DNA of 64,000 nucleotides. It comes from Psammoneis japonica. Taxonomy: Eukaryota. The DNA lies in contig QPGO01000051.1 of assembly GCA_008632985.1 (NCBI GenBank), positions 62,001 through 126,000 of the forward strand, read 5' to 3'. Of this stretch, positions 1-51,899 are shown piece after piece; the stretch's first letter is position 1; every line of letters begins with the position of its first letter. The notes under the pieces were generated by a model. It worked only from the letters and a program-made list of their open reading frames with translations, did not search any database and was not told where the DNA came from. The position numbers were made by a program, and so were the translations under genes.

Positions 1-1750
1 AGGCCGACCTCGTAGCTGATCATGAAGCTGAGGGTGAAGTTCGCCTTGAAAAAGAAGACCGATTTTGTCAACCCTGCTGCCACAATCAGAGCAAACACCA
101 TCAAGTGATGAAAGAGGAGCCTTGAGGTCTGTTTGCTGAATGTGAAGCATCCCAGTGGCGCTGAGAAAATCCTCCGAGCACAGACGGGGGTCTTTGATGT
201 TGTCAAAGTTCAGAATGGCAGAGAATGCAAAGGACGCCACACCAGCTGGCATGGTTTCGCCGCAAAAGACAATCCAGGCATGAATCGTCGTTCAACCATG
301 ATGCCAACGAAAAACTCAACATTGTCTGCACTCGCACAAAGTTCCTTCAGTGCCCTTGTTGCCTCTGATGAAGCTCTGAAGTCTTCAAAGCTCTCCAGTC
401 GAGGGAGATGGAAATGCTCCCGATGGTCATTGAAACCTTGCATCCCTTGAGTTTGCTCATCCTGGATCGTTTGAACTGCGACCTCCTTTGGACAAAAAGG
501 AACATTGAACGCTTCGATGCTCCCCATGGGAGTGCAATGGAAGGCTCACAAAAAGTCGGCGGGATGATGTTGGGAGTGCATTTCAGGCTTCCAAAGAAAG
601 TCCAGCCAGGGGCCCTGTGCTCTCTAACTTTCAAACTCAGATTTTCTTGCCACGACTTGTCTGCAAGTTGTGCAGTTTCCCGCCAAAATCCTCAATCCGT
701 TGGGCCGCGCCTCTTGCACTGCTGCTCATTCTTTTGAAACACTTGCCTGTCCATGGAATGTGATGATGCTGTGGCCTCTTAAAGCCAACAAACCCAAGCA
801 AGATTGCAGTGACACTCCAGCAGTTAGAAGGGCAAAGGAAGGCCTCCTGCTCTGCAGCCACCAAGAGGAGCACCACATCATGTGTCAAGAAGTTGGTGAC
901 TTGCTGCTGATGCAAGTGGCTTTCTTGGATGTTGGATGCTGACTGGGCTGTTTTTTGGTGTGACAAACATGCGACAAAAGTCGACACATGATGCGCTCCA
1001 GCCGAGTTTCTTCAGCCCCTGAAAAAACCTGTGTGGCCTGCTCTGAGCCATGAGCCACATGCAGTGACTTGCAAAGCACAGCAAAACAACACACAGGTCC
1101 ATTGCCGGTGGCTCAATGTGCGCCGCGACCTGCAAGCAGCGCGTCCCATTGATGTGCAGCTGCGACGGCCCAAACCCGGGTGGCGCCCCCCCACATGCAT
1201 TTGACAGAGTGTCTCATCATGATGCTGCCATGATCTAAAATTGGTGGTTGTCAATTGGTGATTGTGCATCAATGACTGCATGAGCAGCTGAAACTCTGGT
1301 GCACAAGGCAGAATTTGCTGAGGTCGCTGTGTGAAAAAAGAGCTGCTCCACATTGTGACGTGGGCCCACAGAATTCCATGTGCAAGCCCCGCAGTGTGAC
1401 AATTTGGTCAATGGACCACCTGTCTTCAATGTCCAAAGCTTGACATTTGGCATTTTTTCAAATCTGCCTGCCGACGCCACTCTTTTGAGACACGTTTGAG
1501 GGTGCTGCTGGTGGCTGCAAAAAATGCCAAAAGTTGTTGAGTTGATTTTCCAACAATTGCGCCACAAAATGACACACAAAATGTTGCCAAAGCTATGCAG
1601 AAATGTGAGAACATGACATGAGGCACATGACAAAAACTTCTGTGTCACAGCCCAGTGCTGCCAAGGCATTACGTGTCAGCAAAATCACAGCAGCTGATGA
1701 TTTTTTTCAGGATTGCACCACAGACCCCATGGACGGGTTCCAGTCCTAGG
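1..1750. mobile_element. Degenerate, TpA-depleted repeat or transposon-like relic (family not identifiable)
   Basis: Only a handful of TA dinucleotides in 1.7 kb. Overlapping Cys/His-rich, nearly Tyr-free ORFs occur in all frames with no coherent protein. 1350-1550 is a converted copy of 1760-1980. Confidence 0.5.
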
Positions 1751-1980
1751 TGGGACTCCGTGTGACATTGGGCCCGTAGAATTCTACGTGCGAGCTCCGT
1801 AGTACGAGAATTTAATTAATGCATATATTTATCTTCAACATCAAATAAACTGCCAAGTTTGTGGTACAATTATGCCTCTTGCCACTCGACGTTTTTGCAA
1901 ATGCGCCTGCCCTACGCGATTCTTAAGACATTATAGAATCGCGCTGTAACAAAAAATGTCAAAAGTTGTTGGACGGATCG
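1350..1980 (+). repeat. Diverged direct repeat pair (about 1350-1550 and about 1760-1980)
   Basis: gggcccacagaattccatgtgcaagccccgcagtgtgacaatttggtcaatg versus gggcccgtagaattctacgtgcgagctccgtagtacgagaatttaattaatg. Both end near aaaaaatgYcaaaagttgttg. Confidence 0.85.
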
Positions 1981-2148
1981 CTCAATAAGTGTACCGTNGC
2001 AAAGATTGACCACATCTCACTGGCCAATGTTCGTGTCAAAGTTCAGAAAGCTTGCCCAGATTTGGACACTGCACAAGCTGCTCAAGGGACCAATTGTTTC
2101 AAGAATTTGCTCTCAATCTCTGAAGCCTTCACAATGGAGATGCGGTGT

Positions 2149-2600
2149 AAAAAATTGGCTTTTTTCTCACGACAAATTTTTTGAACGCAAAGTGAACTTG
2201 GTCATTTCAACCACAACTCTGGCATGAGGCCCACTCAGAGCTGACAAACCAAGTTCCCTGGGATCTTCCAGCAGCTGCTTTGGTTCTTCTTGCGCTGTCT
2301 ACATGGCAACATCTCAGACACATCTCAGGCTGACCTGCACAACTCCTGTCACCAAGTGCTTTGATGTTCATGTGAAAAAATGGCTTTTGTCTCAGACAAA
2401 TTTTTTGAATGCAAAGTGAACTTGGTCATTTCAACCACACCTCTGGCATGAGGCCCACTCAGAGCTGACAAACCAAGTTCCCTGGGATCTTCCAGCAGCC
2501 GCTTTGGCTCTTCTTGCGCTGTCTGCATGGCAACATCTCAGACACACATCTCAGGCTGACACCTGCAGCACAACTCCTGTCACCAAGTGCTTTGATGTTC
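2149..2600 (+). repeat. Tandem duplication of an approximately 225 bp unit
   Basis: 2149-2369 and 2374-2600 are near-identical (aaaaaattggct...caccaagtgctttgatgttc). Confidence 0.95.
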
Positions 2601-11581: not shown

Positions 11582-12507
11582 GGTTCTTTAACTATGCCGA
11601 TTGCAGAAGAAGAATGAGGTTGGAGGTCAAAGAGAAAGCCGGAAGAGAGTGCGCGCAGAGCGACAACGACAGCCCGCGACTTCGCCTTTTTTTGTCGCCA
11701 GGCGAGATCGAAATGATCAAAGACATTTTATGAGTATACGTGTTCCAATGTTGAAATTTTAGTATCGTCATTTGAATTGTGCATTATTATTGCCTTTCGA
11801 ATGTCCAATTTATAGAAATGTCCCTTCCTGAAATGAAATTAGTTCAATGACATAACCGCCAGAAACCCGGCGAAACGTCTTTCTGTGCCCGCCCGTTCGC
11901 CTCTCCACCAGCCCACCAGCCACCAGCCTCCACACCATGCCTGCAATGCTGTACACCCTACCAGCATTCCTTTTGCCAGAATGTCAAAATTGTCACCACC
12001 GTTGATCACATCACTTCTTCCCCTTCCTACCGTGTTTTTGTTTCTTTCTACTCTGTGACATGCTCCTCAATGCACAGTGCTGGATTCGCTCCCCTCACTG
12101 TCTTTGCTGGAGAGACAACACGGCGCACATTTCTTGCTGACTGTGTGGTGACTGAAGAGATGGGCTTGGCAAGTGCAACTTGCAGAGAAACTTCTCATTG
12201 TGGACATGTGCATTACATCCACTCGAGTTGGAGTTGATGATTCTAATGTAGGGTTTGTTTTTGCTGTACAGCATATTTTTGAAAATTCAATACAATCATC
12301 ATAGCCGTAAAGTAACATTACGGTTCGGAAGAGAAGAACTCCCTCCAACGTCTGTACGGCGAACCTCATCACGCCAACTCAGTGAAATCGAAAAAATTTC
12401 GAACGCGACGCAACAACGCAAAGCACAACGTCGCCGCCTTGATCTTTCTTCCACCGTTGTGCATTGCAACACAGACACACACTTAAGTTTCTTTCTGTGC
12501 GTGTGTT

Positions 12508-30397: not shown

Positions 30398-30504
30398 GTC
30401 TAATGCAAGGGACAACATTTTCTTTGAAAGAGAAAGAGCCACTCTCTAGAAACGCGTGGTGGCAGAAAGAGAATAGTTGGCTAAGTGAAACTTAGAGGAC
30501 GGAC

Positions 30505-30894
30505 ATGGATCGGTTCCACCTTGCTCGGGTCGGAGCTCACTACAGAGACGTTGCATCTGTCTACCCTTGATATCGGTGGCGAAAAACTGATAGACTTGAT
30601 CTACGTATTTAACTTCTGAAGACCGAACCAGTTACGTCGTTGAAGCGGGAGCACGTCCTTTGGCTAATTGAAAGCTTGAAGGTTAAAACAAAATGGAGTT
30701 ACGCAGGCTGGTGGAACTCAAACCTCAACCGTGGTGATTTGCTGAGTGCCGTACAGAATAGACGGACTACGAATAAGATAATAATTGACGGCATGAACGC
30801 ATCAAGGGCTTTGCCCGTGCTAGCGGAGGCAAAGTGTAATTTTCCAGACAACGTCGCCATCAAGATTGATACCGTGCCAGGCATGACTGTTTGA
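30505..30894. pseudogene. Relic mosaic: duplicated 3' end of the 31026-31477 gene plus a 3' fragment of an ARM-family gene
   Basis: ggatcggttccaccttg...aaaaactgataga occurs at both 30507 and 31039. IIDGMNASRALPVLAEAKCNFPDN matches the ARM C-terminus. Confidence 0.8.
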
Positions 30895-31025
30895 AAGTTG
30901 ATTCAATCAGTTGAGATCGAACTGAAGAATCTCGTAGAGGCTAGGAAATCCAATGGTTTCGATCGGTTGAAACAGGAAGAAGGCCCTTGCGTAAATTCGA
31001 ATAGCTCGCTAAATGAAACTAAGAA

Positions 31026-31477
31026 TTAAGAGGGAGAAGGATCGGTTCCACCTTGTTCGGGGTCGGAACTCACCACACAGACGTCGTGTAGAAAGGCTTG
31101 GCATTCCAGTTTTCTACCCTCGACATCTGTAGCAAAAAACTGATAGATGCGGTATCTCTCGTTGACTCTTGGCGGTCCGTCAGCTACATCTTTTAACTTT
31201 TGATACATTGTATCCACCTGCTGACGCATGGATAGACAAGCGTGTACATACCGTCGACATCAGGTGCAGCATCAGAATCGTTCGCCGTTTGATGGAGTCC
31301 TAGCAAGAGATTGCCGTGTGACACAATAGTAATGTCGGGTTGTTCCAACCATTTCTTGAAATCCAGACGGTTGCAATAGAAATCAACCAGCCGAGGACGA
31401 TTCTGGGTCTTGAGAAAGACTAGGCCACCATACATTTGACCCACTGTTGTCGTCTCTGCCGCCTCAGAAGAGGACAT
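31026..31477 (-). CDS. Glyoxalase/VOC-fold protein (frameshift near 31228)
   Basis: LVDFYCNRLDF...VDTMYQKL...YQFFATDVEGRKLE pattern spans two adjoining ORFs. Confidence 0.75.
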
Positions 31478-31479
31478 GC

Positions 31480-32990
31480 TGTTGGATGTTGTGCGATGGA
31501 TTGTTGCGTCGCTTGCAGCAGGCAGGACGGACCAAAATGTGGCGCGTATTCATCGCACAGCAGCGGCGTCGCGTGCATGCACGGGTGTGCCTGTTCATGC
31601 TTTGACTCACGCTCACAAGTGCGGTCGCACACTGGAAGACATTGCAAAAGTCGGTTTTTATCCCATACATCAATGAAATGGCAACCAATTCTAACAAACG
31701 ACTTGAACATGAAGAAACACGACACTCTTAGTCCAAAAATGTCTCTCGTCCATCCAAAATGATTGGACTGGAGAAACCTGCTTTTGCTCACAACTGCCTC
31801 ACACAACAGAGAGATGACAAGCAACACTCCCGGGGAAAGAAAATCTCCTGCAATGGACATGTGTGTGATGGCTTGAGGGCAAATCTGATCAGTGGACTGC
31901 AGCATGTTCTGTGGCTAGAGAAAGTTCTGCAGGTGCTGGGGTTTCTTGGCGCATCATGTCCAACCTTGCCGCTGGCCAGAGCAAGAAGCAGCTTCATTTC
32001 TTCTCCATTTGTGCTGAACTTCTAGCACCTTGCACAGGATTGATCATGCTCAGATCACAGATGGGACTTTTGACTGTTGACTCCAAGGTCCAACAACATT
32101 GTTTGAGACCAGCCCCTTTTTTCAAATGGTGTGTTGCTCGCAAGAGCTGGTGCGCGCCGCCGGCTGCACGACCTCCTCACAGGAGACAGCAGGAGTGCCA
32201 TGGATCAAAACTGGAAAGTTGGGGCTCAAAAGGTGGCAGTGGCAAGGATGAAGCCAATGTCTCCAATGAGGAGGAGGACATTTCATCAGCTGCAAAACTT
32301 TGTGGTGGGGAGACCTGTGGACTGTGGAGCAGCCACCTCAGCAGCAATTGTTGACAATCAGAAGAAACAGTTTGATGAAGAATCCTTCACTTGGAAACAG
32401 AGACAAGAATGGTCTCCAGTGGGGCATGTCATTTTTAGGAAAACATCAAGAAGTTTCTTCATGCTGACTGTGGTGGTCATTGTTTCACACTGCACACTGC
32501 ACCTTGCCAGATGTCCATCCAAGCATGACTGACACTGTGGTCAGGGTCATCAAGCACTTTTCAGATAAAGTCAGTTGCTGCATGAGGGGGCAAATGGCTT
32601 TCTGGGGTTCCTTTTGTTTCAAATGATTCACCACAATTCTTGAATCAATGGCATTGGTGAAGTGTGCTTGGATTGAAGAACCCCCCGTTGGCCATCGAAT
32701 CTGTGCAAATTGACTTGCAGAAAGCACAGAGATCACAGAAATGCATGTGCAAGGTTTTTTGCTGCTGCTTGGCATGTGCTTTTGGACAGCAAGGTGAACA
32801 CAAAGAAGAACTTTAAAGCAGCTAAAGCTTGCAAAAGGTTCTGACGGTGGTGCAGGCTGCCTCTGTGGACAACTTTTTCCCGAGCATCTAGAGTTCACGA
32901 AAGTTTCCACTGAGTGCACAAGCTGTTGGCAACAACTGATTTGGTCACTGTCTGAAGCTCTCCGAATGTTTCAGAAGTTGAAGGAGAATG
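31480..32990. mobile_element. TpA-depleted domain with an unidentifiable repeat relic
   Basis: Very few TA, strong TG/CA excess and Cys/His-rich pseudo-ORFs. Confidence 0.45.
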
Positions 32991-33157
32991 TAAAAGATTT
33001 CACCCGTTCTGGTGGGATCACATCACGCTCCATTCCGTAGTAGCCAGAGTTGATCGCCCCATCCTTCACAGCATTAATTTTGAATCATCAAAAACATGCT
33101 ATGGTAGGAATGCTAATGTGAGTAAGAATATGATAGAGAGAATTCTATACTGTCGTT

Positions 33158-33995
33158 CTATGTGAATGCCGTCAACGGCACGTGTTCCTGATCTTGTTGT
33201 TGTTGCCCCCGATCTAATCGACTTGGGTCTACTTGATAGTCCTGCAAATCCAAGAATTGTGGTGCCTGTTGTTGCTGTGATGATGACACGTGACTGTAAG
33301 TACTGCTAGAGCCATCGTCCGTCAAGAGTTGACGATCTTGTCGTCGTTTGACTCGAGAATCATGGATTCGTAAGATTACTGAGGCAATAAAAGTAAAGAT
33401 AAAGAATCCCATGGCTCCAAAGGCGCTGTCTCTACATGCGTCAACGTCTTTTAATCCACCTACATAGAATGGTTGTTTTGCAATCATTATTCCTACCCAT
33501 GCCTAAATTTGTAAAGAGCGAGAAAAGCAGTGAGAAACGAGAAACATGTGCTAAGGGTGGGTTGCATGACTCCATCCTACTTGTAGGCATGCAAAAATAC
33601 CAACCCCGCAAAAGACTTCAAAGAGGGTGGTCGCAATAAACTCTCCAACTCAGGAACGAGCAATAACGCGTGTAATGGTCGGAAAAGGCCTCGAGAAGAA
33701 AACACGACTTGACTCAGTAGCTCCGAAAAATAATCGAACTCCGAGGTGAAACGATCTCTCTTGTTCTCTCTCGTTGTATCTATCGCCCGAATAAGAGCTT
33801 TTAATCAATACTTCTCTCTATCTCTCGTTGCGACAACACTTCGAATTGACTCTTATTCAAAAATGACGTACTCCGCACGTCATGGCGGAATGTTTTCTTG
33901 TGATAGAACAAAAATCAATCACTCACCATAAATATAGCTCCCACCACGGAATAGAATGTACAGCATTGCGCGATTGCCCCAAGATCAGTACACAT
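33158..33995 (-). CDS. Small two-TM protein, paralog of 25747-26376; intron 33926-33503
   Basis: MCTDLGAIAQCCTFYSVVGAIFM|AWVGIMIAKQPFYVGGLKD...SAFGAMGFF, with a GT-AG intron at the same codon as the paralog. Confidence 0.75.
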
Positions 33996-34299
33996 GTTTA
34001 TTCTCGCTCTGTTGTAATAACGTCGTAATTGACTCTGACAGTGTCTTTGTTGTGATGCAGCAGCGTAGTGATGATGATGACTGAACAGCAGCCTGCGTAG
34101 AATGACTACCACGACGCACGTAAATCGAACGGTCGAATTCAACGCGCGCAAGAAAAATGACCGCAAAGCACTGTTCCTACGTCTCCAAACAAATACAGCC
34201 AAAATCCCAACAGAGAAGAAACAAATCGTGTCAAGTAAAATGTCTTTGGTTCAATCGTTGGAGTGTAATACAAGTCGTTGGATGAATCTAAGGACATGG

Positions 34300-37200
34300 A
34301 CGATGAGCGACAGTCATTGTCACTTTTTGTGTGCCGTTGTGTTGTGTCTGATGTTGGAGTGTTGGTGCGTGTTTCGCGCGCAAAAGCGAACCACATGCGC
34401 GGTACTCAAATCACGTAGGACTTTACGTGAAACAAGCAACCAACTTGACCCTATTTCACTCAATACCTTTTCTTGATGATCGAGTCGCTGGAGCATGCCG
34501 GCAGGACAGGATTGATAATGCGATTACATCCAAGTAGAGGAGCTGGCCTAAAACAAGCATTGAACACTGTGCACCATGCTTGAATCACACTCAACTTTCG
34601 TGATTGACTTCTTTAAAACATCGTCTCAGCCAGTTGCTGGACACACTTGGCGTTGGACACCATGTCTTTCGTCAACAACTTGTGTGTGAATGCAATCATC
34701 GCATGGTTTCATGTGAATGTAAATGCTGTGGGCAGAGGCTGGATGGCACTCTCTGGTGCTGCTTGCTCTGCCAGCTTCAGCCAGCTGCACGACATTGTGA
34801 CAGAGGTGGCGTTTGGAGCAACATTGCAGAAATGTCTTCTTTGTTGCCGCCACTCACATGAAAATTGAAATTGTTGTCACAAAAAAAATGTGTTTGTTGT
34901 GGCGATTGTTTTTTACAAGGACAAAGCCATTTGACGGTTGCAACACATCACACACCCCAGTGGATCCGTTGCTTGGATTCAAGAACAACAACGCACTGCC
35001 GCGCACCTTCTTGTCAAGTGCAGATGGCACCACGGCGTCAACGGCAATTTCTTCTGTCGATTTGTGTTTTTCACCAAAGAATGGCGATGAAGGAGGCAAG
35101 AACAGGAAACATTGCACTGGGCATTCAAAGCAAAAGAGCTGCCTCCGAGCGCCTCTGCTCGTGTGCACGCTGCAAAATGACAGAAATGATGGTTTCCTTC
35201 TCACAAAAACAACTTGCCGCAATGAAAACAACATTTTTTATGTTGACAATTTGAACTTTCATGTGAACAGTCACAACAAAAAAGATTTCTGCAAAATTGT
35301 GCATTTGGTGAATCACAGAATTGCTCGGCAACACACCATCATCATTTCTTTGGCCCTGCCGTGGCCCGTCTGCTGGCATCTCAGTGAGGAGACATCAGTG
35401 CACGAGGTGACCTGTGCATGCAAAGCATGCACGGTGCAGTTGATGCATGGACTCACAATTGAGAGTGTGGATGGTGTGGGGGGGGGGCACCATCAAAGAT
35501 GCTTCCCACCAATGTTGCTCAAGGCGACAACAGCTTGCTTGTTTCTTTGAAAGCACATTTTTGTGTCGATGTCACGAACTTCCATCCAAGATTGCAACCT
35601 GGGTTGCCTGCTGCATCAAACCATTTCTCAAGCAAGTCATGCAATTGCAGAACTGCCACAACCTCCACCAGGAAAAATGGAGCAGTCTGTCCATTGGTTT
35701 TTCTTGATTGATTGGCCTGTGATCTTCGTTGATCAACAGTCTTTTGATGCCACCAGAAATGGCCTGCTCGGCTCGAGCTTGTCTTCTCACTAAATTGTCA
35801 ACTTTGCCATTGAGAATGTTGAAGGCATTTGCATGGAATGTTGTTTGCAGGCTCTGGTGTGTTGCACCTGAATGTGCTGGGCCACACTGGGTGTGTGTGT
35901 GCCAACACAAGTGTCAAAAAGAGCAGAGAAAATTTTGCACATCCCAGGAAAAGGGCAAGGCACCAGGGGAAGATCTGGCACCAGAGCCCCTTCCATTTAT
36001 GATGACAATGGCACGTTGGTCATCAGCATTGACTTTGCATGGCCACTGATGGCAATGATGCATGGAGACCCTGAAATGACAGTGATGGAAGATGGTCGTT
36101 GACAGCAATGATGTGTGTGGAGAGACACCAAAATGACAGTGATGGAAGATTGGGCATGTGGGGCTCTGTCGCACATCATTGTGGACAAGAAATGGGATTT
36201 TTGAGTCAGGGCTCAAGCCCACAGCTTGAAGTGTGCAAGTCACAACCCCCCCCCCCCCCCCATTTCAAGAAACGAGAGGGTGCATGTGAGCTCTGTCCAG
36301 CACAAGCCCAAGAAGCAAGAGGCTCAGCCAGGACCCAGAGCAATTCTGAGTGCTTTCTGCAGGTGGAATTTCCAAATGATCCACGTGTGCAATGTCTGAA
36401 AGGATTGTTCCAAAAAACAGAGATTTGTCTCATGAACCCATCAGTTGCTCCAACGAGACAGAAGCTGGAGCCACCCTGAGAAAACCTCATTCTGTCTTGT
36501 GCAAAGTGCTTGCAAGATGGGGTTCCTGCAGGCAGGAGCATGAAGCATGAAATGACATTGCTGGAGCTCAATTTGTTGTTGTGCACATCAACTGAATTTT
36601 CGCACTCAAAGGGTCTGGATTGCACAGTTGAGATTAAAAAGCTGTTGAAAGAATGCAAAAAGGAGGATGATGCATCTTGCATGGAGGCTTTTGACCCTGA
36701 GATTTTTCTGCAGGGATCAGCTCTGGCAACAAACCCCAGGCTTTTCCTGCACAAAAAGGTTCAAATTTGGTCGAGACTGCTTGGTCAGTGCTCTGTTGTT
36801 GGGTGTGCCTTGGACATTTCTGAACACCATCTTTCAATGTCAAAGACAACTCCACCTTCTTCTGTGTTGTTGACTGCCAATTGGCTGAAGGTCAGCATGC
36901 CTTGGCACTTGGCTTGGATGTTTGTTTTGTCAATTGGAAGGGCAGAAAACCAGCCAATGTCAGAAATCTAAAGAACTTGAAATGTGACCCAGTCACTTGG
37001 GTGCTCCAAGAATGGCATTGTTGTGGTGAAGTCAACATCAAAAAGGCAAACACTCTGGCATTTTGTGCCATGTTGACTCAAACTTGGAACAAGCAGCTCA
37101 GGGAACACATTTGTGGCCCACCAGGACTGCCACGTGTGTGTCCCATGACATTCAATGCCCGGGCACCTAGTGGGCCACTTGTTGTGGGGCCAACACTGCC

Positions 37201-40165
37201 ATTGTTAGAAATGTTGGTTGCTGGGAATGCATTGCAGAGTCACTTGAGTGCATTGCAGAGGGAAATGAATGAAGTCATCTTCCTGGTGACAAAAATCAAG
37301 ACCCCATTTTTGATTTTGGTCGCTCTTTCCCAAAACATTCTTGAAGGCCTTGGCCACCACCACAGAACAAGCCAATGCAATGTGGTCAAGGGCGCCAATG
37401 GTTCATTTCAGCTGGCTCAAAAAAATGCCAGTGACAATTTTGCAGCACTTTTCTCATCATGTTTTTGAACAATGATGTGAGTTTCATGTGAACAATGCAA
37501 GTCTCAACAAAAGCCATTTTAGACATGTGCCACCTGTTGGCTTTCTTGATTTGCTGAGTTGCCTGCGGCATGATCGTTGCACTCATTGGATGCCAGGTTC
37601 TCCCAGTTGGGTTTTTGAGTCTGAGCTTCTTTTTTCAGCCTCAAGCTCACTGCATTTTGATGACATTTTTGCCTGCTTGAGATTGGCTTCATTTGGTGGT
37701 GGCTGTTCCCAGTTTCTTGATGGTCCAACAAGCTTTGCTGTGCTGTGCAAACTTTGAGTCACCACCAAGATTGTGGCTCTTTTCAGCACAACAGACAAAC
37801 GCAGGCGGGCTGGAGAGTGCACTTGATTTTTGTTTCATTTTGCCACCTTTGCAGTCACGCATGTTTCCTCTTCTGTTCTAAAATGTGGCTTTTGGAACAA
37901 AGTTGTCATTCTCAAACCTCATGACAGAGTCAATGTCCCTGAGGCAACCTGCTGCCAAGCAGCAGTGCTGAGCCTGGCACTTGCTCTTGCCGGGGAGGGG
38001 CTGGCAGGCAAGAAGGATCCATCACATGATTTGCCTGTGCCTGATGAAAGCCATGGCAAATGACCTCATCTCTCATGGCTTCTGCTGAAATAGAAACCAA
38101 TTGGCCAGTGAACAGATTTGCAAAAAGAGCACATCTTTGAAAAGAGCGACTTGCTCCTGTGCAGTTGGAAGTTGGTGGTGCAGGCTGATTGGTCACTCTG
38201 GCCCCAGCAACTGCACCAGCATCTTCATTGATGCCATGTTTCATTGCATGGCACATGGCATCCCTTTCAAAGGAGTCAGGGTTGAACTCCTCAAATTCCT
38301 TGTCCCAGTCCCTTGTTGCTGATGGCGCGTCAAATGATGAGCTCACACTTCTTTGTGACAGTGGACTGGGGCAAATTGTGGGGCCACATCGCCATCAGAG
38401 TCATTGGCATCGGTGGCGCTGGCCATGTCATCAACAACAAACAAGCACTTGAGTCATCTGACAAGTCCAAAAACAGCAACGCAATGCATGAAAATGCATC
38501 TCGTCATCATTGCTCCTTTGTGAAATCCACCTCTTTTGGAGCTCGGAGGGAGAGGTGAGGCTTCCCGCATTGATCAAGGGCTCGAGTCTCGTTGATCACC
38601 GCAGAGCCTCAGGCAGGCACCTGCACTGGAGACTTCATTGATCGGGGGCAGGCAGGGTGCCAGCGGGCGGGCTTTGCCAGCAGGCCTGTCAGCAATTTGA
38701 CACAAAAAAGGACCATCCAGTCACTCCAATCTTTAAAATCAGTGGCGCCACCAATTGCACAACGGCAATCATGCACTGCAGGTGCAATGAGTGTGGTTGC
38801 AAATGCAAGGCAAATGATGGCAAGCCACTGCTTGAGTTGCCAAAGCTTGTCGGACAGTTGCATCCCATGGACATTTGGTGCACATGGTTGCCAACTCCTC
38901 ATTTCACATGGACTTGACAACAACAAGATGCGCTAAACACGAGTTGAAAGAAAGCAGCAATGGTGATGCCATGTCAGCATGCTGCACCAACAACGTGGCC
39001 GAGCTTGCCTTGACATGGAGGAGCAACATTGTTTGAGGTGGATTGAAGCAGCAAAAAGTTCCACGATGCCCACACCAGTGTTTTCAGCTTTTGAGAAGTG
39101 GCTGGGTCACTGCGGACCAACAGGTCTTGAAGCGTGGTTCAATCGGCACAAGTGCTCTGCGTCTCCTGGAGCGGCAGACGCCGGTGGACGGTGCGATCCA
39201 GATTCTGGTGAGCCTCTCTTCATGGAAGACACCAAGCCGGTGGTGGAAAATGCAAAGGTGACAGCTTGTGGACTCGATGAGCCTTCACAATGTGGAGACT
39301 TGTGCAGAGTCGTCAAGCCTTCAAAATGGTCAAAGTGTGAGCTTGGCACGTGCATCACCACCGCCGGCACCAAATCCAAGCTTGAGAAGTTTCATCACAT
39401 CGTCAAGCATTTTGGAAACACCGGTTCCAGGAGTGCCTTCATAGATGCACTGTGTCTTGCTGGAACTTGTGAGTGCAACATTGCGGTGTGTCAGCATCTT
39501 CGAACAGATGAGATGACAGCGGACGAGCGCGCCAAGATTCCGCACGCCTTTCGTGGGGTTCCAATGTTTCTTAACCACAGCAGGCTCAATTGCAACAACA
39601 AGTTGTTGGAGAAAGCGAGAGTCAGTCATCCTGTGCATGAAAATGTTGAAGAATTGAAAGCAGACAATGGGGCAAGCGGTGTTTTTCAGCATGCACGAAA
39701 CAACTGGAAAGCTTGGGCGAGGAACTCGAAGCGAGAAAAGCAAAATTTGGCACAGCAGCGGTGAGCAGCAAGAACAACCCTGACAGATGCATGTGCAGCA
39801 AGTGTGGGACAAGAAAATGCAAAAGGAACTGTGAGTCACAACAGCCGATGCCGACGTGTGCTGAGGGGCCGAGCGTGAAAAAAAATGAAGTCCTCGTGTC
39901 TTCAAGATGTGGCAGTGCCGAGATGCGAACCACCCGTCCCTGATGCACCACACCCTGTGCCACATTGTGCACCGATTGCCATTGCTCCATTTTGGACCAG
40001 TTTTCCAACATATTTGCCGCCGTTGCAGATGGCGCCGAATCCGCAATCGCATCTGACCAACAAATTCTGTTGCTTCCGAGCAAGGGATTTTCATCTTTCA
40101 AAAACAAACTTGTTGGGGGTGGATGCTCGAGGAAGAGCACCACATGATGAAGAACATTGTTCATC
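34300..40165. mobile_element. Large TpA-depleted domain of nested transposon-like fossils
   Basis: About 5.9 kb with sparse TA. Includes a transposase-like remnant at 38979-39764. Confidence 0.6.
38979..39764 (+). pseudogene. DNA-transposase remnant (Dada/DUF6729-like C-terminal catalytic region, tentative)
   Basis: DPDSGEPLF...DLCRVV...CITTAGTKSKLEKFH resembles the D..G.PLF...LY...Y...RG.S.LE.FH pattern, with Tyr replaced by Cys. The 261 aa ORF contains no Tyr. Confidence 0.5.
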
Positions 40166-40584
40166 TAAGTAGCCTGTAAATGTAGATTCATTATTTGCAT
40201 TGTGATTCTAGCCAACGTTCCATCTCGAATTGGGACCAAGATGGAAGACGGGAAATGGGGGGCGATGGCGCATAAATAAAACCAACCATAGAAATCTTTT
40301 ATGCGCACCAGGCTCATGTGCTCTATCTTCAACTCCGCGACCTTCGTCTCCACTTCTTTCCTTGCTGCTTCCGTTTGCTCTCTTCCTTCCTTCTCTCTTG
40401 TTGCAGGAGCAGCAACGGGGTCGCTTCGCTCCCCCTCTCCCCCCCTCTTCTTCCGTCTGTACCCCCCTATTTTCCTAGCTAGAAGTAGTAGAGAGAGTAG
40501 AGACTACTGCAGAGGCACTTCTCCCAAAACCTCTCTGCGTTGTCGTTTTTTCCTCGTCAACAACAAACTTGCATCATCACCACT

Positions 40585-41946
40585 ATGGCTTCTTTGCATA
40601 TCGTGCCTTTCGAGGACTTTTTCGGTGAGCAAGGCCTCTCTACGGAGAACTTTAAAGACACTTCAGTGGAGGACTTTCGTGAGTTGTCTCGAACGCTCTC
40701 TGGTCCACTTCAGCACGCTTCCAACTGGCGAGCCTTTTGCGAAATCAAAAATAGTCTCATCGTCATTGACCGCAAGATGACGTGCCTCACTCAAGTCTGC
40801 GATGAAGCAGACTTACGTATGGAGGAACTTCTGGAATTGAAAACAAAAGAGTTCAGTTTTCTTGTTGTCAACATTCTCGGCCTCTCCGTGGTGGATTATC
40901 CTCCTCTGTTTCATCTCTACACGGAGGCACAAAAGCAAAAGAGTACAGACACCAACACCGCCTCTCTGGAACCTCTCATGGCTCCAAACAGCAGTGGTGG
41001 TACTGCTGCTGCCGATACGGTCACTGCCGATCCAGTTGTTCCTCAACAAGTGACCTACGGCAAGAAGCCGGCCCCTGCTCCTGGCATCCCTAAGAACGAG
41101 AGAAGAACTTCTGTTCCTGTGGTTTCATCTCCAGCCCCTCATACTTGTCCCATGCCCGCCCCTGTAGCCGTGACTCCGTCCGCCGCTGCAGTAGCCGCTC
41201 CCGACGAAGCGAGAGGTTCCAACGATCGTAAGCGCAAAGCCGAGGAGCAAGGAGGTCGAGAAGACGGGGAAGAGGAAGAGCGCTCGATTGGGCAGCTCGT
41301 TGGGGAAGACTTGTGGAGCGATGAATTTGAAACGGTTAAAAAGGCGACTGTGAAACTGGTTGAGCTAACTTCCCATGAGGATGACAACCCTGGTGTAGAA
41401 GCAAATTGCAAAAGAATTGTCGAAGCCTCCGGGCATCGTGCCGTGCTGGAGAATGTGAAGAAGTCTGTGGGCGAGAAGGAGCGTCATGAGTTCATTGAAA
41501 ATAATCTTTGCATTCTAATGGAGCTTTCCTACACTAGTGACAAGCGCGCGAAGATCATTCGCAATACTCCAAAAATCGTTGACACAATTGTCAAGATCAT
41601 GCAAACCTTTGCTGACCGAAGTGGATGCTGTGCCAGCGCTTGTGGTTTGTTGGGAAATCTTGCGGAAAAGGGTGCCGATTTCAAGGTCAAAGTGTTTGAA
41701 GCTGGGCTGGTCTCGTTAGCTGTTGAAAGCATGAAGAAGTTTGCCAACGATGAGTACATGCAATGGTTTGGCACCTTGTTCCTCGAACAACTTTTGAGAA
41801 GCAAGAAGAAGAAAAACAAGATTGTCGATGCAGCAAATGCGTGCAGGGCCGGGTCGGTGCTATTCGAAGCAAAGCACAACTTCCCTGATAATAAAGATGC
41901 CGTGAGGCATATCAAAGCCTGTATCAAGATATTGAACGAACGCTGA
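40585..41946 (+). CDS. Armadillo-like repeat protein (local family) with a unique N-terminal extension of about 200 aa
   Basis: Intact ORF. The family-homologous part starts near 41180 (AAVAAPDEARGSNDRKRKAEEQGG). Confidence 0.85.
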   Translation: MASLHIVPFEDFFGEQGLSTENFKDTSVEDFRELSRTLSGPLQHASNWRAFCEIKNSLIVIDRKMTCLTQVCDEADLRMEELLELKTKEFSFLVVNILGLSVVDYPPLFHLYTEAQKQKSTDTNTASLEPLMAPNSSGGTAAADTVTADPVVPQQVTYGKKPAPAPGIPKNERRTSVPVVSSPAPHTCPMPAPVAVTPSAAAVAAPDEARGSNDRKRKAEEQGGREDGEEEERSIGQLVGEDLWSDEFETVKKATVKLVELTSHEDDNPGVEANCKRIVEASGHRAVLENVKKSVGEKERHEFIENNLCILMELSYTSDKRAKIIRNTPKIVDTIVKIMQTFADRSGCCASACGLLGNLAEKGADFKVKVFEAGLVSLAVESMKKFANDEYMQWFGTLFLEQLLRSKKKKNKIVDAANACRAGSVLFEAKHNFPDNKDAVRHIKACIKILNER

Positions 41947-42199
41947 TTTGCATTCTGTGACAGTTGGAATGACCTTCTGTCTTCCGTCTGGGACAAGTTG
42001 GTGTCAAGAGAAACTTCCACGCGAGCTCATCCTTGCTGTTGTGGATGTTGAGCTTTATATTTAGTACCATTATCAAAGTGACGATGTCTTAGCTTTAGTT
42101 CAATTCCTACTGTAAATTAGCAGTGAACGATTCAAGTGTGCTGCAGCTGCTGCCTCTAGCGCTACATGTTCCGCGCTAGAGTGGTGTCTGGTGCTAATG

Positions 42200-45164
42200 G
42201 TGTAGCCCGGTGTCTCGTTTTACTACTTGGCAGAATGTTTCCTGGAGATCTCGTCCGCTGTTGACAACGCCAAACCGACAGAACTGGGAGATGACCGTTC
42301 CGCACCTTGAATTACGCAAGCAAGTCTTCCTGTATGTTGCTCCTGCCGTCCTCTCACCATTTAGAGAAGAGCAGCATTTCAATTTTCAACCCCCACAACC
42401 GTCCAGTCGATTTTAGCGAAATCATCAAGAGCATCCCAGATTGCGGTTTCTAATGCTTGGATCAACTTGAGAAGGCTGGCACTGTCATGTGAGAAAACTG
42501 AACTGGAGACCTCTTCATGCGCTTGGCAACAAGTCGCACTCAGGGAGCACTTTCTCCTTCTTTCCTTCCATTGCAAATGGGCCCCACATCACCTTTTCCT
42601 TTTACCTGCACCATGCCATGCTGTTCAAAAACAAAATCACCCCCTCCAGGACTTTTGCAACATGCTGCATCATCTGAATTCTCACCGGAACTTCCTGAAA
42701 CACACCCATTCCAGAGGCTGCACATGTGCAGATTGTCAACGAAACCCTTTTTGACAACTTCCCACCAGACTCAATTCTCAATTTGCTCCCTCTTGAGTCC
42801 TTGCCTGGTGGAGTCAGTCATGGTTGGCCTTCGTGCAACACACGTCAGCTGCGCAACAGCCAGCAGGCCAGCAGCAATGTGGCTTGCCTTTGTGGAGCTC
42901 CTGCAGCCTGCAGCCACTTGTGGACTCACAGCAGGAGTCATGTTCATGACAAGGTCAGTCAAGTGACAGACAGGTCCTGCTGATGGCAGGGTGTCATCTG
43001 GTGCACGTTGTGTGCATGTGCCAGCACACCTTCTCATGCACGTCAGAGTGCACAACATTGCAACATCTGCACACATGACAAAAATGTGTTGCTGTGTTAT
43101 AAAACCTGCTTGTCTGCACATGACAGTTTTTGTCATTTGGTCAATTGTCAATCTCCTGCCATTCTTCATGTTTGAACACAGATGTTTTTTTAGTTTTTGT
43201 GCTCTGCCTTTTTCACAACAACCGACGATCTTTAACGACAAGCCAAACATTGCAATTGCATGCAATGCAATTTTCATCATGCAAAGTGTGCACTGATTGT
43301 TTGGTCAATGACTGTGCTCCAATTTGCCCAGTCGTCCGCATCGTCCTCTTCATTCCATGTGTCTCATCCGCTCTCTTGCAAGAATTTCAAATGTGCCACT
43401 GCCGCGTTGGATGTTTCCTTGTCACCGTTCCAAAAAAGCCACACTGCATGTCTTGCATTTGGGTGAACATCATCAAGAGGAAAAGGTCCCTCGAAACGCC
43501 GAATCACATCGCTGCTCCCCTCTTGACATTGTGTCGTCGGCTTCTTTTTCTCTTTCTTCATTTCGCCTGTCCTGTTTTTCTCTTCCTTCTTCGTCTTGGT
43601 GCCGCCTGTTTTCACCGTCTCCGGCATCTTTCCATCTGAATCCTTCTTTTTCATTGATCCCGTCGCCATCGCCTTCATCATCTCTTGTTGTGTTTTTTTT
43701 TCTGTTGTGTGTCACTTTGTTTTGGATCCATGTTTCTGACTTCTCTCCATGCTGTCTCCATTTCCGAATGTTTCTTTGTGATTGTTCGTGTGCATCACTT
43801 GAAGGCACCCATGTGTTCTTCACGCACCTTGACGCGTGTGCAGAAATCCATGTTGTTTTCCAGTGCATGCACCCTTTCTCCTGATGCTGTTTTGCACAAT
43901 GTTTTCTTCCATCAACTCCACACTCCTCATTGCTCTTTCCCAGCATGATCTCATGTGGGATTTCCCTGGGAGAAGTTGCGCGCGCGTCTGGCAGGTTTTT
44001 GTGTTTAAAACTCCAAATCCCACCAGGCACACATGTGACTTCTCCCACACACCACTCTGGCACATTTCTACAGAAACCAGTTTTTGGTGTTGGAACAGCA
44101 ACCATGGTGCCATGTGACCTGTCGGTCGCCTCTCTGTTGCAAGACAACAACGATTCCTGCCTCGAGGAGGCCGCATTTGAATCTCTCTTTGCCAACGGTT
44201 TTGGAGTGATCGACAGCAACGAGCGGAGCCATGTCAAAGCAACAATCGAGACGGTGAAATCCAAGGTTCAGTTCCACCGCGACTCCACTTGTGACCCCTC
44301 TCCGAATTGGATCGCGCTTGCCTGTGTGTGGCAAAAGTCGAAGGGCAGACCTCATTTTTTTGTAGAACTGATGGCTGTGATCTGCGTTGTTGCAAAGGAA
44401 CTTGGGTGCAAGAGCTTGCTGCACTTTCTTTCCACAAAAGGATGGAGTCACTCCAGTCAAGGCGCCAAACGCATCAACTCTTTTCTCCTTGGCAGAACTG
44501 CACCAAGCTTGATGTTGCTGTTCCCAGTGTGCCTCTCAATGAAATCAACAATGCAATCATGCAATTCCAGGGGAGCACCACGTGTGTCCATGAGCTTCTT
44601 GCACAACTCCACGCAAGCTCCGTCAAGATTTGTCAAAGAGGGAGCAGAAGCCAAGGCCTCTTCTGCAGGAGTGTGATGCCTGATCCTCAAACGTTGATCC
44701 TCATCGTGAATGTCCTCTTCCTCCTCCATTGTCACGTCCAACACTGCAGCAAAGGATTGACCACCGCCAACATCCAAATCGTTCATTGCCAAAAGTTCAA
44801 CTCCATGCATGCTGTGGTTTGATGAAATGGAGGACATGTCGTCCATTCCGTGCAGTGCGTCATCCGGGGAGGGGAACAAGGGGCTGCTGCACGGATCACT
44901 CGTTGAAGATCTTGGGAATCTGCTGCAAGCAGATTGCCTTGGATGGGATTCGTCATCATCAGAGGATGAAGAGGAAGAGCTGCCACTTTCTTTGGGTGGC
45001 CCCTCTGTTGTGGCAGGAATGTTGCTTTGATCTGGGATTGGATCTTGGGTTTGCAACTCTTGGGCAACTGAGCAACACGTTGGTGAGTGTCTCCAATGGC
45101 AGGCTGTTCGCAAAAAACTTTTGCCACACCCGGGACAGAGAAGAGGGTTTCCGTCCATTGTCAA
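42200..45164 (-). mobile_element. Degenerate minus-strand coding fossil, transposon-like, with an N-terminal CxxC finger
   Basis: CPGCGKSF...H...C followed by ELCKKLMDTRGAPLELHDCIVDFIERH. Fragmented ORFs continue to about 42200. TA is depleted above about 42420. Confidence 0.4.
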
Positions 45165-45379
45165 TCAGACAACGTTGACAGGGCCTTCATCAAGACTCAT
45201 GCTCGTCATCCTTGTCTTGTGGATGAGAAAGGAAAAGAAGAACAACACGCAAAAAATGGCGGGAAATTGGCAAACATTGCATTGTCTTCCAGATTTGGAT
45301 GATTCTTGTGGGCATGACGTGTCTGCATTTTGATTTTTTATCTGGCATTTACGATGAACATTGCACTTTTCATTTGCCA

Positions 45380-47350
45380 TCAAAATGCAGGATGTTGTCT
45401 CCGTTGAAGCGCAATGACAGCCATGTCAAAAAGCAAGTTGGACTGTTCGTTGTTGTGTGTGAGTGCATTTTCAAATTTCAATGTTGCTGACAATGATTTG
45501 TGCAATGTCGTGGAGAAAAACAGAGTGGCTGGCTGTCTCAACACGACCCAAACAACGGCTGCACTGTTGAACAACAACACTCCTCTCACTGTTGCCATGA
45601 AAAGATCAAGATGTCGTCTCCAGCACCACCGGCAAAGAAGAGAAAGAAAAATGAGTGATGGCACCATGGCTTTCCTGTGCACACTCAAGCTGACTTCAAC
45701 ATTGTTTGACTCATTGGACACTGGTGCTCTGACAAGATCATGCTCTGCTGCTGAATCTTTCCTCCCAGATGCTTGCCAGCAGAGCCTGCACACTGACCCT
45801 CGGCAATGAAGCTTCCCTCCTTCATTGGGCATTTTGCTCACATGCTGCACTCCCACCCAAAATTGATGGCCCACCTTCAGATTTCCACCAAAGTGGACCA
45901 GCAGGAGCTGGCACCCATCTGCTGGCTCCATGGCTGTGAGTGGGTCTGGAGCTCAATCTCCACAAGCAGACCTCTGGAACCAAACCAGCTTGGCTCTGGG
46001 GATCCAGCTGTTGCTCTGTTTTCAAGGGGGCAACAGCCACTGCAGAGTGGGGAAGATGATGCAAAAACCTGTTGATCAGCTCAAGTCTGTCCAAACAGGT
46101 TTGATGTCTCTTGCACTTGCCACTTTGCTGGACCAGCTGATTGCTCACACCTTGGTGACTCAACTCTTGCTCATTCTCTTTGTGTGGCTGTTTGGCAAAA
46201 AAATGTGAAGAGTTGGACAGGAGCCAAAAGGATGCACTCCCACCCACCCTGGGAGCTGGCACTCACCTGCCAGAAATCTGGGATGGTCGCATGTGCATGC
46301 ACACCATCGCACAACTGAGCTGCTGTGCAGAGCAGGTTGTTTGTGCTTTTTGCCACTCATTGGAGTGACACAGAGACCATCAGTGACAAGCAAAAAATCC
46401 ACTTGATTTTTTGCATGAAATGGCAAAAATCTGATTTGCTCGCCCATCATGATCATGGCAGTTTTTGAGATTTTTGAGGGCACTTGTCCTGTCATCTCCA
46501 AAGTGGCAAATTGACTTGTGTTGGGTTGTGACTTGTTGCCATGGTTGAAAAAATGGCACCCTGCTCAGCTGTGCGTGCTTTTGGCTCCATGAGGCATGAG
46601 GCACTGCTGTGAACTTCTGAAGTCATGCTGCTGCTCATGCTGAAGTGCATTTGCACATCACACAGTTCCCAGTGGCAGCACAAATCAGAAATTTTGTGAC
46701 TGCATGCACTGTTGTGCCAGCTTCTTTTGCTTGTGCTGCAGCTGTGGCACTGAGTGCCGCCCACTGCTCTCTCACAAGAATGGAAAAATGCCCCCCCCCT
46801 CCTGGCTGTGCCCTGGGTGAGTTTGCCCCCTTTGTTTGCTCAATGGCTGCCTTTCTCTCAGCCACAATGGCCAAACAGTCTCTGGAGCCATGCAGAAGCA
46901 TTGCTTGACTGCACAGGACAGATTTGACAGTGCATCCTCTGAGCAGATGAGCTTGTCCAAAACAGGCATTGAGCCACTGTGCTGGGCCAACAGAAGAGTG
47001 CACATTCAACTTTTTTTGTGCACAAGCAAGTGATTCTTTCTTGAAATTGTGCTCTCAAGGGGCTTGACACACTTGGCAATGGAGGAGGCCATGTCTTTCA
47101 TCAGCTGTTCACAATGCATGAGAATCGCAGTCATTGCCTCAAGTCATGGTTGCATGAACAATGTGTGGCCAAAGGCTTGGCGGTGCTCTCTGCAGTGCCA
47201 TGCCATCAGGCCCCACCCTCTGTGTGCTCTCAACTGGCTGAACTGCAAAGCACATCTGTGACAGCTGCAAGCTGCAGTGACATGCAACCAAAGAGGAGAT
47301 TTGAACACAAAATTGAAAATGAAACAATGCAAGTGGCTGGCAGCACAGTT
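45380..47350. mobile_element. TpA- and CpG-depleted relic, unidentifiable
   Basis: I see no TA and few CG across about 2 kb. Confidence 0.4.
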
Positions 47351-47553
47351 GCTGATGTCAGAGATGAATCTGCTTTTGCTGTCATGTGTGGGTGTGGGGG
47401 TTGCTCAAAACTGGAGGGAGGCAAGAGATTGGAAAGTGCCCCAGCAACAGTGGTGAGTGTGTTTGTCTGCACCCAGAATTCTTTCAAAGATTCCCCATAA
47501 AACTGCAAACCATTTTTTGCACTTGCAGCTTTTGCAACAAAACTTTGCACACA

Positions 47554-48400
47554 ATGTCTTCCTTCATGGCCCCTGCAGCAGCCACAAACAACAATGACGA
47601 CATTGCTCTCAATGAAGCAAGGAGTGGCAATGATTGCAAATGCAAAGCTGAGGAACAAGGAGGTTGAGGTGATGTGGAGGAGGAACCCAAGGAAATCTCA
47701 GATGAAAAAGAAGAGCACTTGATTGAGGAGCTCCTGCTTGTGTGGGAGGACTTGCAAAGCAACAACTTTGAAACAGCTGCAAAGGCAACCACACAGCTGG
47801 TCAAACTAACTTCACATGACAATGACAATCCTGATGCAGAAGCAAATTGCAAAAGAGTTGTGGAAGCCTCCAGGCATGTTGCCGTGCTGAAGAAGGCAGA
47901 GAAGTCTCTTGGCCACAGGAGCCATCACAGGTTTGTTGGTGCAAATCTTTACAATCTCAAGCATCTTTCCTGCAAGAGTGACAAGTGCCAAAAGATTGTT
48001 CACCAGACCACTTCAAAGGTGGTGGGTGCAATTGTGAAGATCATCCAAAACTTTGCTGGTGGCCGCAGAGGATGCTGTGCGCCAGCGCGCTTGTTGTGCA
48101 TTGGGAAATCTTGCACTCAATGATCATGACCACAAGGTTAAATTGTTTGAAGCTGGGGGATTTCATTGGCTGTTGAAAACATGAAGAGATTTGCCAATGA
48201 TGAGGAAATGCAGCATGGCAGCTCCCATTTGCGCTCAAAGAACAGCTTTTGACAAGGAAGGGGGGAAACAACCAAAGAAGATTGCTGGTGCTGCAGATGC
48301 TTGCAAGGCCTTGACAGTGATGTCCAAAGTGAAGTGTGACTTCCCTGACTGTCAAGGCATCAAGAGGAAGACCACAGCTTGCATCAACACATTGAACGAC
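47554..48400 (+). pseudogene. Hypermutated pseudogene copy of the ARM-family gene (upstream region homologous from about 47355)
   Basis: Collinear with the 27585-28660 locus. CGA>TGA stop at 47665, frameshifts, and systematic TA>TG/CA and CG>TG/CA changes. Confidence 0.93.
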
Positions 48401-48685
48401 AACGGCATCTACAGCAGTGTGAAGCTGCTTTATTTAGCAAGACCTGTCCGCAGGCTTGTGAGTTTCCTACTGACGACAACAGACATGTTTCAGTTTCTAC
48501 GTAGATTCTACGTAGGCCGCCTTAATCCTACGTCATTGGTTGATTTCGATTGGCTCAACGACGCACCGCCGCACAAAATCACCACACTTCTATCTTGTTG
48601 TTGATGTTGCGTTGTTGCGGTTCTCATCCATTGATTTTGCATCGATTAGTGTATTAGCAACCACATCAACCCTCACTAAAGTATA

Positions 48686-51897: not shown

Positions 51898-51899
51898 TG

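Follow-up and report, generated by a model that had tools for sequence, protein, structure and literature searches.

Why have bounded stretches of DNA in the pennate diatom Psammoneis japonica lost nearly all of their TA dinucleotides, while the genes between them are ordinary? We addressed this question in one 64-kb window of contig QPGO01000051.1 (the window is the whole stretch of DNA that was analysed, 64,000 nucleotides), to which the composition and paralog results below apply. An earlier note, made from the sequence alone, had described seven such domains and proposed a new genome-defence system that mutates TpA to TpG or CpA. A dinucleotide count found 1,850 TA in the whole window, very unevenly spread. 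The TA-erased blocks, whose totals comprise six strong blocks and a weak one at 11860-12240, make up about a quarter of the window: their 18,042 bp contain 64 TA (observed/expected ratio, obs/exp, 0.05), as against 1,784 TA in the other 45,958 bp (obs/exp 0.57), a density that predicts ~700 TA in the blocks. The blocks, to which no strand is assigned, are as follows (all ratios are obs/exp).

1-1750: TA-erased block that continues past the window start; 8 TA, 0.07; CG 0.46; TG 1.87, CA 1.47
2000-2640: TA-erased block; 3 TA, 0.07; CG 0.24
11860-12240: claimed seventh block, weak; 5 TA in 381 bp, 0.23; CG 0.50
17380-19945: TA-erased block; in 17520-19944, 6 TA, 0.04; CG 0.26; TG 1.92, CA 1.55
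31480-32990: TA-erased block; in 31550-32990, 11 TA, 0.11; CG 0.34
34300-40165: TA-erased block; in 34720-40165, 17 TA, 0.05; CG 0.38
42420-48409: TA-erased block; in 42452-48409, 14 TA, 0.035; CG 0.32

Sliding windows gave a TA obs/exp of 0-0.1 in the blocks and ~0.4-0.8 elsewhere. The longest TA-free run, 45350-47498, spans 2,148 bp (P ~6e-37 at the outside density) and is joined by runs at 44363-45339 (976 bp), 43233-44006 (773 bp), and 17891-18631 (740 bp), whereas the longest TA-free run outside the blocks is 264 bp. Six of the seven domains in the earlier note thus hold up, as do its statements that flanking DNA has normal TA and that 17893-18630 has none (TA-free 17892-18630). We rejected 11860-12240 as a seventh block, since its TA obs/exp of 0.23 is not separable from that of ordinary gene windows outside, which reach 0.13-0.27. 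Intact ARM-family genes are among the TA-low windows (28251-28750, 56001-56500, 41251-41750, and 51251-51750; obs/exp 0.13-0.27) and have normal CpG; their low TA may reflect codon usage, or else the family may have been partly exposed, long ago, to the process that erased TA in the blocks.

The blocks are also depleted in CpG (obs/exp 0.35, versus 1.00 outside), which the earlier note had not remarked on, and they are enriched in TG (1.77) and CA (1.66). Pyrimidine-purine steps as a whole account for the same fraction of dinucleotides in the blocks (0.238) as outside (0.242), and the combined share of TA and CG among these steps falls from 0.40 outside to 0.10 in the blocks. An unchanged total with a fallen TA and CG share means conversion rather than native composition; the TA-poor composition is therefore the product of conversion from a normal one. 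G+C content is nearly equal inside and outside (0.488 versus 0.476), because the A:T>G:C changes at TA are roughly balanced by G:C>A:T changes at CG.

Two sets of paralogs allowed us to polarise the changes. The first is a local family of ARM-repeat genes, one dead copy of which forms the right end of block 42420-48409, and whose outside copies were recognised by paralog comparison.

47359-48409, forward strand: dead ARM-repeat gene copy, right end of block 42420-48409
40501-41946, forward strand: unmutated ARM paralog outside the blocks (control)
27310-28665, reverse strand: outside ARM paralog (control)
50942-52070, 53091-53917, and 55857-56899: outside ARM paralogs (controls)

We compared the in-block copy with the consensus of the five outside copies and treated each outside copy likewise as a control. 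None of 17 TA sites is kept in the in-block copy (7 became TG, 6 CA, 4 other), and only 3 of 41 CG sites survive (17 TG, 17 CA, 4 other). Each control keeps 4-7 of 11-16 TA and 21-28 of 35-39 CG; pooled, the controls keep 29/66 TA and 126/188 CG, which differ from the in-block copy at p=3e-4 and p=6e-13, respectively. All other classes of change in the in-block copy match the controls (p 0.12-1.0). These include non-TA A>G (22/204, versus 84/1,031 in controls), non-TA T>C (15/160 versus 79/831), non-CpG C>T (12/113 versus 48/575), non-CpG G>A, which is likewise at control level, and transversions (48/750 versus 306/3,759), and AA is kept at 64 of 81 sites compared with 55-68 of 76-89 in the controls. 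The earlier note had named A>G changes no commoner at TpA than in other contexts as an outcome that would speak against it; we found A>G outside TA at control level and TpA lost. In a purine/pyrimidine (R/Y) alphabet, which is blind to transitions, the in-block copy is 86-88% like its paralogs, which are 88-90% alike among themselves. The pseudogene belongs to the local tandem array of its own gene family and is oriented alike. TG<->CA swaps are in excess in the in-block copy (13/128 versus 20/677), and we considered this as proof of long-continued activity but discarded it, as conversion of private TA and CG that the copy already had is just as good an explanation.

The second set consists of two tandem fragments of another gene, with the parent gene segment as their outgroup.

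17354-17822 and 17819-18395, no strand assigned: two tandem dead fragments, copies of 23365-23941, at the left end of block 17380-19945
23365-23941, reverse strand: unmutated parent segment, within open reading frame (ORF) 23507-25297, which has PseudoU_synth_1 and zf-C2H2 matches; TA obs/exp 0.40-0.58, CG ~0.9-1.1

The inner fragment (17819-18395) keeps 0/16 TA (9 TG, 4 CA) and 11/37 CG (11 TG, 9 CA), and the fragment at the block edge (17354-17822) keeps 2/12 TA and 17/28 CG. In this set, TA became TG or CA at 13/16 sites, and TG or CA became TA at 0/82. The two sets agree with the earlier note that A:T>G:C transitions occurred at TpA on both strands within bounded regions (0/17 and 0/16 TA kept, with TG close to CA in number), and they uphold the direction that it had read from three inside/outside paralog pairs, although the independent sets number two rather than three.

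The tandem fragments also record the order of events. Of the TA sites common to both units (n=11), seven share the same derived state and four are discordant; among the CG sites (n=28), four share a derived state, five are intact in both units, and 19 are discordant. The seven concordant TA sites were therefore lost before the duplication, and because TA is mostly concordant and CG mostly discordant, TA erasure was early and fast, and CpG decay slow and ongoing in place. The same separation is visible along the blocks, in which TA loss is uniform and CpG loss uneven. CG obs/exp drops to 0.03-0.2 at 45500-48000 and 36500-38000 (TA ~0-0.1), stays at 0.46-0.85 in a high-copy repeat at 43116-45771 (TA 0-0.10), and stays at 0.57-0.77 at 39000-40000 (TA ~0.03-0.06), so that in block 34300-40165 the CpG loss is deepest centrally and weak near the right edge. 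TA loss is thus faster than CpG decay, precedes it, and is separable from it. A further tandem pair within block 2000-2640 (2145-2369 and 2370-2600, 92.6% identical) has no TG/CA discordance and was therefore duplicated after both TA and CG conversion, a chronology opposite to that of the pair at 17354-18395.

Both strands were hit alike. TG is close to CA in every block, and 250-bp bins are not overdispersed (chi2 16.2/20 df, 12.4/22 df, and 5.2/8 df), whereas TG/CA bin counts in outside DNA are; along the ARM copy, the order of TG and CA outcomes is random (24 runs, 24.5 expected). Equal numbers in random order argue against editing of one RNA or complementary DNA (cDNA) strand. Among the 59 TA that survive, TTAA and CTAA are over-represented (27/59, versus 14% outside) and ATAC, GTAC, and ATAT under-represented (3/59, versus 31% outside), which suggests either that TA followed by a pyrimidine is the preferred target or that the survivors are newly arisen.

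The transition takes place within a few bases at the sharp edges 1750, 19945, 32990, 40165, and 48409, and the left edges at ~17380, 31480, and 34300 are graded, their TA becoming sparser across 300-600 bp. A graded left edge goes with a sharp right edge in three of the four large blocks; this asymmetry may be accidental or may point to directional spreading. At both testable edges (17354-17383 and 48405-48410), mutation ends where homology to the parent gene ends. We found no terminal motif shared among the block edges.

The TA-free sequence is reproduced in reads. Contigs that we built from raw reads of run X1 (one sample, three public runs) agree with the blocks across 0.9-3 kb, differing at 0-1 positions, at a depth of 28-37, as the earlier note had advised checking. 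The library type of X1 is without record and its sample may be the assembly's own source, so that this is read-level support rather than a second isolate. Five contigs show no differences (34389-36260, 36247-37102, 38268-39178, 40852-43087, and 45626-48591) and that at 31427-33173 shows one. Several cross block edges, and 40852-43087 and 45626-48591 span both edges of block 42420-48409. The exact match, together with the strict context specificity, makes an assembly or base-calling artefact unlikely.

The blocks are composed of one high-copy repeat, anonymous single- or low-copy DNA, and dead copies of two host genes. The copy classes describe appearance in X1 summed word depth, which is not copy number. 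The repeat is

43116-45771, no strand assigned: high-copy repeat, X1 summed word depth 6,400-14,500 versus ~36-60 for single-copy DNA

and 461 of the 2,163 X1 contigs matched to the window are at least 99% identical to it. Parts of 35812-40459 appear low-copy, and 31164-33155, 34484-35811, and 45772-48427 single-copy-like. We screened 24 in-block ORFs and 12 six-frame read-throughs of 34300-40169 and 42420-48409 (stops as X) against Pfam and found no family, the sole match being at chance level (E 0.09). Homologous-protein searches found no relatives for the reverse-strand ORFs 45380-45952 and 44457-45164, an exhaustive HMMER search returned 0 matches for ORF 34801-35550, and ORF 36824-37468 had no usable Atlas match. 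Across the Pfam, six-frame read-through, and homology searches, the blocks yielded no transposable element (TE) or viral protein and no reverse transcriptase. The earlier note had called the domains transposon-rich, which fits one 2.6-kb high-copy stretch; the rest is single- or low-copy DNA or dead host genes, with no TE domain. When the window was compared with itself in the R/Y alphabet, no additional homology linked the blocks and no terminal repeats emerged; an Rfam search of the window was negative, and a tandem-repeat scan found nothing relevant. Transition-blind RNY (purine-any base-pyrimidine) periodicity, in a scan blind to strand, gave a weak coding signal only, save in the ARM pseudogene.

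To account for the observed signature, which is polarised, restricted to blocks, symmetric between strands, and ordered in time, we lean, with slightly better than even confidence, towards a TpA mutator and a separate decay of methylated CpG that act in place on blocks of non-functional DNA, the mutator working by adenine deamination in DNA. The blocks would be stretches of non-functional DNA mutated where they lie by two context-specific processes. One would be a fast, region-restricted mutator that changes A:T to G:C only at the palindrome 5'-TA-3' and takes either strand at random, turning TA into TG or CA; the other, slower process would be the well-known decay by which methylated CpG becomes TG or CA. 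A silenced, methylated chromatin state, or else an inserted or duplicated segment, would target the mutator. Chemically, an ADAT2/TadA-like enzyme, or another with a deaminase fold, would turn adenine in DNA into hypoxanthine; adenine deamination is the leading candidate because the changes are pure transitions with an absolute dependence on a 5' T. For the tRNA adenosine deaminase family, the substrate A follows U33 (the U33-A34 context), which a 5'-T preference would mirror. Relatives of this family have been reported to edit DNA, according to work cited in the accessible text of a recent preprint (bioRxiv 10.64898/2026.01.13.699255).

Several points weigh against this explanation. Four of the six blocks have no paralog, and polarity there is assigned by analogy only. 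The repeat family at 43116-45771 may have spread already TA-free, its TA loss not being polarised; if the family did multiply after TA loss, it would be immune to the TpA mutator. The silenced chromatin that the earlier note thought probable, and its methylation, we infer from the CpG decay in the blocks, and the step from there to the silent state as what targets the mutator is likewise a conjecture; the coincidence of mutation and homology at the edges (2/2) could mean that an inserted or duplicated segment, not a chromatin state, is what is recognised. The bias of the surviving TA is neither a match for any particular deaminase nor grounds for dismissing one; TA being symmetrical, a process directed at thymine would account for it just as well. 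The closest known case, in the chlorarachniophyte Bigelowiella natans, differs in two respects in what the preprint's accessible text reports: its targets are viral, whereas here they are a repeat, anonymous DNA, and dead host-gene copies, with no viral or TE protein found, and it showed no CpG component, whereas CG>TG/CA is elevated here (CG kept at 3/41 and 11/37 sites). We read the extra CG class as a second, separable process.

A different chemistry with the same targeting is conceivable, in which the T of TpA is oxidised by a TET/JBP enzyme to 5-hydroxymethyluracil or 5-formyluracil (5hmU/5fU), or the A is N6-methylated and then lost, and miscoding gives T>C or A>G. Since TA is a palindrome, A-directed and T-directed events look alike in sequence, and the survivor bias reads equally as a preference for T preceded by a purine. 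Thymine and 5-methylcytosine (5mC) are, moreover, both 5-methylpyrimidines before a purine in the two lost dinucleotides, and 5-formyluracil mispairs with G. Yet the T of TpG, abundant in the blocks, is not visibly unstable beyond the conversion of private TA and CG, and TA and CG losses differ in kinetics and are separable; we consider this chemistry unlikely. Error-prone patch repair, in which T:G mismatches from 5mC deamination would trigger non-canonical mismatch repair and a pol-eta-like enzyme would insert G opposite T at TA, could explain why TA loss occurs only where CpG decay is also seen, and repair of the mismatches could remove TA at a higher rate than CpG disappears. Pol-eta spectra include AA sites and many transversions, whereas here neither AA>AG/GA (AA kept at 64/81) nor transversions are elevated, which also makes the WA>WG pol-eta candidate of the earlier note a poor fit. 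The B. natans mutations, essentially without C>T and with 230/231 being TpA transitions in the preprint's accessible text (bioRxiv 10.64898/2026.01.13.699255), count against patch repair too, and we judge it quite unlikely. That the blocks arrived already TA-poor, as copies mutated elsewhere or as natively TA-poor DNA, would agree with the many near-identical TA-free relatives of the high-copy repeat (461/2,163 contigs at >=99%), with edges that are the ends of duplicated segments at 2/2 testable positions, and with the tandem pair at 2145-2600, duplicated after mutation. It is nonetheless improbable, given that the ARM pseudogene is part of the local tandem array of its family and is oriented alike, that the units at 17354-18395 diverged further at TA (4/11) and CG (19/28) after their side-by-side duplication, that graded left edges are hard to obtain by insertion, and that the mass balance shows conversion from normal composition.

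Homology-triggered mutation resembling fungal repeat-induced point mutation (RIP), with TpA as its target in place of CpA, draws on the facts that both polarisable cases are duplicates of host genes and that mutation ends with homology. Diatoms also have DNMT4 enzymes related to the RIP enzyme RID (PMC9998398). The partner copies are untouched, however (23365-23941, and the five ARM copies, which are about equally similar), sizeable portions of the blocks are single-copy-like in depth, and the window holds no hidden homology even in transition-blind comparison, which renders such a process distinctly improbable. A-to-I editing of retroelement RNA or cDNA by an ADAR- or ADAT-like enzyme, fixed by reverse transcription and insertion, would share the 5'-U preference typical of A-to-I editing, as the accessible preprint text describes it (bioRxiv 10.64898/2026.01.13.699255), but it is largely refuted and very improbable: no reverse transcriptase or other TE domain was found in the blocks, the strands are equal without strand tracts, the affected DNA includes host pseudogenes of a local array, and mutation continued after local tandem duplication. 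An assembly or base-calling artefact at modified bases might be suspected where all runs come from one sample, possibly the source of the assembly, with no second isolate. We hold it to be highly improbable, because raw-read contigs match exactly over 0.9-3 kb at a depth of 28-37 and because errors would neither confine themselves to TA and CG with perfect transition specificity nor leave graded chronologies in tandem copies.

The TpA part of the hypermutation seen here has a close counterpart. In mutation-accumulation lines of B. natans, 231/302 nuclear mutations fell in two integrated silent viral regions, and 230/231 were A>G or T>C, all at TpA, according to the accessible text of a preprint of April 2026 (bioRxiv 10.64898/2026.01.13.699255). 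The rate, seen only in some lines, was ~6e-7 per site per generation, ~1000-fold above background, and the authors propose an ADAT2-like DNA adenine deaminase; in the same accessible text, CpG, diatoms, and stramenopiles are without mention (bioRxiv 10.64898/2026.01.13.699255). The likenesses extend to transitions only at TpA, on either strand and to TpG or CpA; to bounded regions in an otherwise ordinary genome (here, the rest of the 64-kb window); and to clusters poor in TpA and rich in CpA+TpG as a long-term footprint, with many affected sequences unannotatable. The differences, as far as the preprint text goes, are in lineage (a chlorarachniophyte of the Rhizaria there, a pennate diatom of the Stramenopiles here), in targets and degree (giant-virus and virophage inserts with partial depletion, Rho TpA 0.45, there, and near-saturation, 0.05, here), and in kind of evidence, a rate measured directly there and a footprint alone here. 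Judged by their signature, the diatom blocks thus appear to belong to the kind described very recently in B. natans and not to a categorically new system; the earlier note's claim of novelty fails in this respect, as the same TpA-only hypermutation has been measured there (bioRxiv 10.64898/2026.01.13.699255). The new elements are the lineage, near-saturated depletion, targets that are not viral and include host pseudogenes, and the CpG decay superimposed on the TA loss.

Other known processes fit less well. Fungal RIP is likewise a dinucleotide-specific transition hypermutation of duplicated or selfish DNA with sharp limits, the products of which are unrecognisable to similarity search. RIP changes C to T, mainly at CpA, so that TpA arises, and it affects every copy of a duplicated segment, whereas here TpA is lost, CpA and TpG are gained, partner copies are intact, and much of the affected DNA is single-copy-like. 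Decay of 5mC at CpG, known from transposons of diatoms, fungi, plants, and vertebrates, matches the CG>TG/CA changes at 34/41 and 20/37 polarised sites, with 17 TG and 17 CA in the ARM copy, but it explains the CpG half only, and the TA loss has no counterpart in it. The polarised spectra therefore bear out the earlier note in that neither 5mC deamination nor RIP explains TpA loss. Hyperediting by ADAR or APOBEC enzymes, ADAR preferring a 5' U, also produces clusters of deaminase-type transitions against selfish elements; it acts on RNA or single-stranded cDNA and leaves strand-biased tracts in retrocopies, unlike the equal strands, random order, and host pseudogenes seen here. Pol-eta WA>WG mutagenesis differs in that AA contexts and transversions are at control level here. 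Our literature search for diatoms found no report of TpA-erasing hypermutation, in agreement with the earlier note, and the first diatom (P. tricornutum) mutation-accumulation study reports, in its accessible text, a GC>AT bias and no TpA effect.

A saturated footprint in a diatom means that the process is not peculiar to one chlorarachniophyte or to viral inserts, prior reports amounting to one preprint. It also ties TpA hypermutation to regions with the hallmark of cytosine methylation and orders the events, TA first and CpG later. A wider reading is that a TpA mutator of silenced DNA is an old genome-defence system common to the SAR supergroup (Rhizaria and Stramenopiles), saturating on dead or foreign DNA, host pseudogenes included, with a repeat family escaping by being TA-free; we put this forward as a tentative possibility. 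Diatoms are ecologically dominant and some are genetically tractable, which offers a realistic route to the enzyme via species comparison and knockouts, and a natural A:T>G:C mutator of double-stranded DNA with dinucleotide specificity would interest base-editing research. Annotation of repeats and genes by homology misses such blocks, and they will skew analyses of diatom genomes that rely on composition.

Around coproporphyrinogen oxidase relatives, 39 metagenome loci (235,172 bp) had 0 windows of low TA and high TG+CA, compared with 144/636 here, in a sample of mostly short loci of mixed taxa that is too small and gene-centred to speak on other species. The neighbouring coproporphyrinogen oxidase itself has its best named relatives in Nitzschia, Fistulifera, and Amphora (66-70% identity), by which measure the host would be a raphid pennate diatom. 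Block 42420-48409 sits between an expressed ARM gene and a DAHP synthase gene, in which run X2 joins over two GT..AG introns, 48757-48901 (143 bases) and 49543-49628 (84 bases). Run X2 thus behaves like RNA, though it is not recorded as such; it gives no cover in any in-block bin, an absence that was not used as evidence, and run X3 placed nothing on the window.

Between 1751 and 1998, a 250-bp island of normal composition (19 TA and many CG) parts two erased blocks and ends at the sole N of the window (1998); a later insertion, or a join made in assembly, could explain it. The motif TCTACGTAG (at most one mismatch) occurs 18 times in the window versus 3.5 expected, a count reached in 0/100 shuffles, at sites that include 48496-48516, 40164-40172, 1777-1790, 20353-20362, 34093-34101, and 33460-33468. 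Two exact tandem TCTACGTAG copies lie ~90 bp outside the edge at 48409 and a variant lies exactly at the edge at 40165; the motif is probably a promoter element of the flanking genes. In 30500-50400, X1 contigs on the single-copy-looking parts of the blocks have a depth of 28-37 and the flanks sum to ~56-69. The flanks differ densely from the assembly, in some cases at half depth (23/50 at 31218-31284). It may be that the blocks are hemizygous or that a second allele has diverged by more than 10% in these places; this depth is not a copy number.

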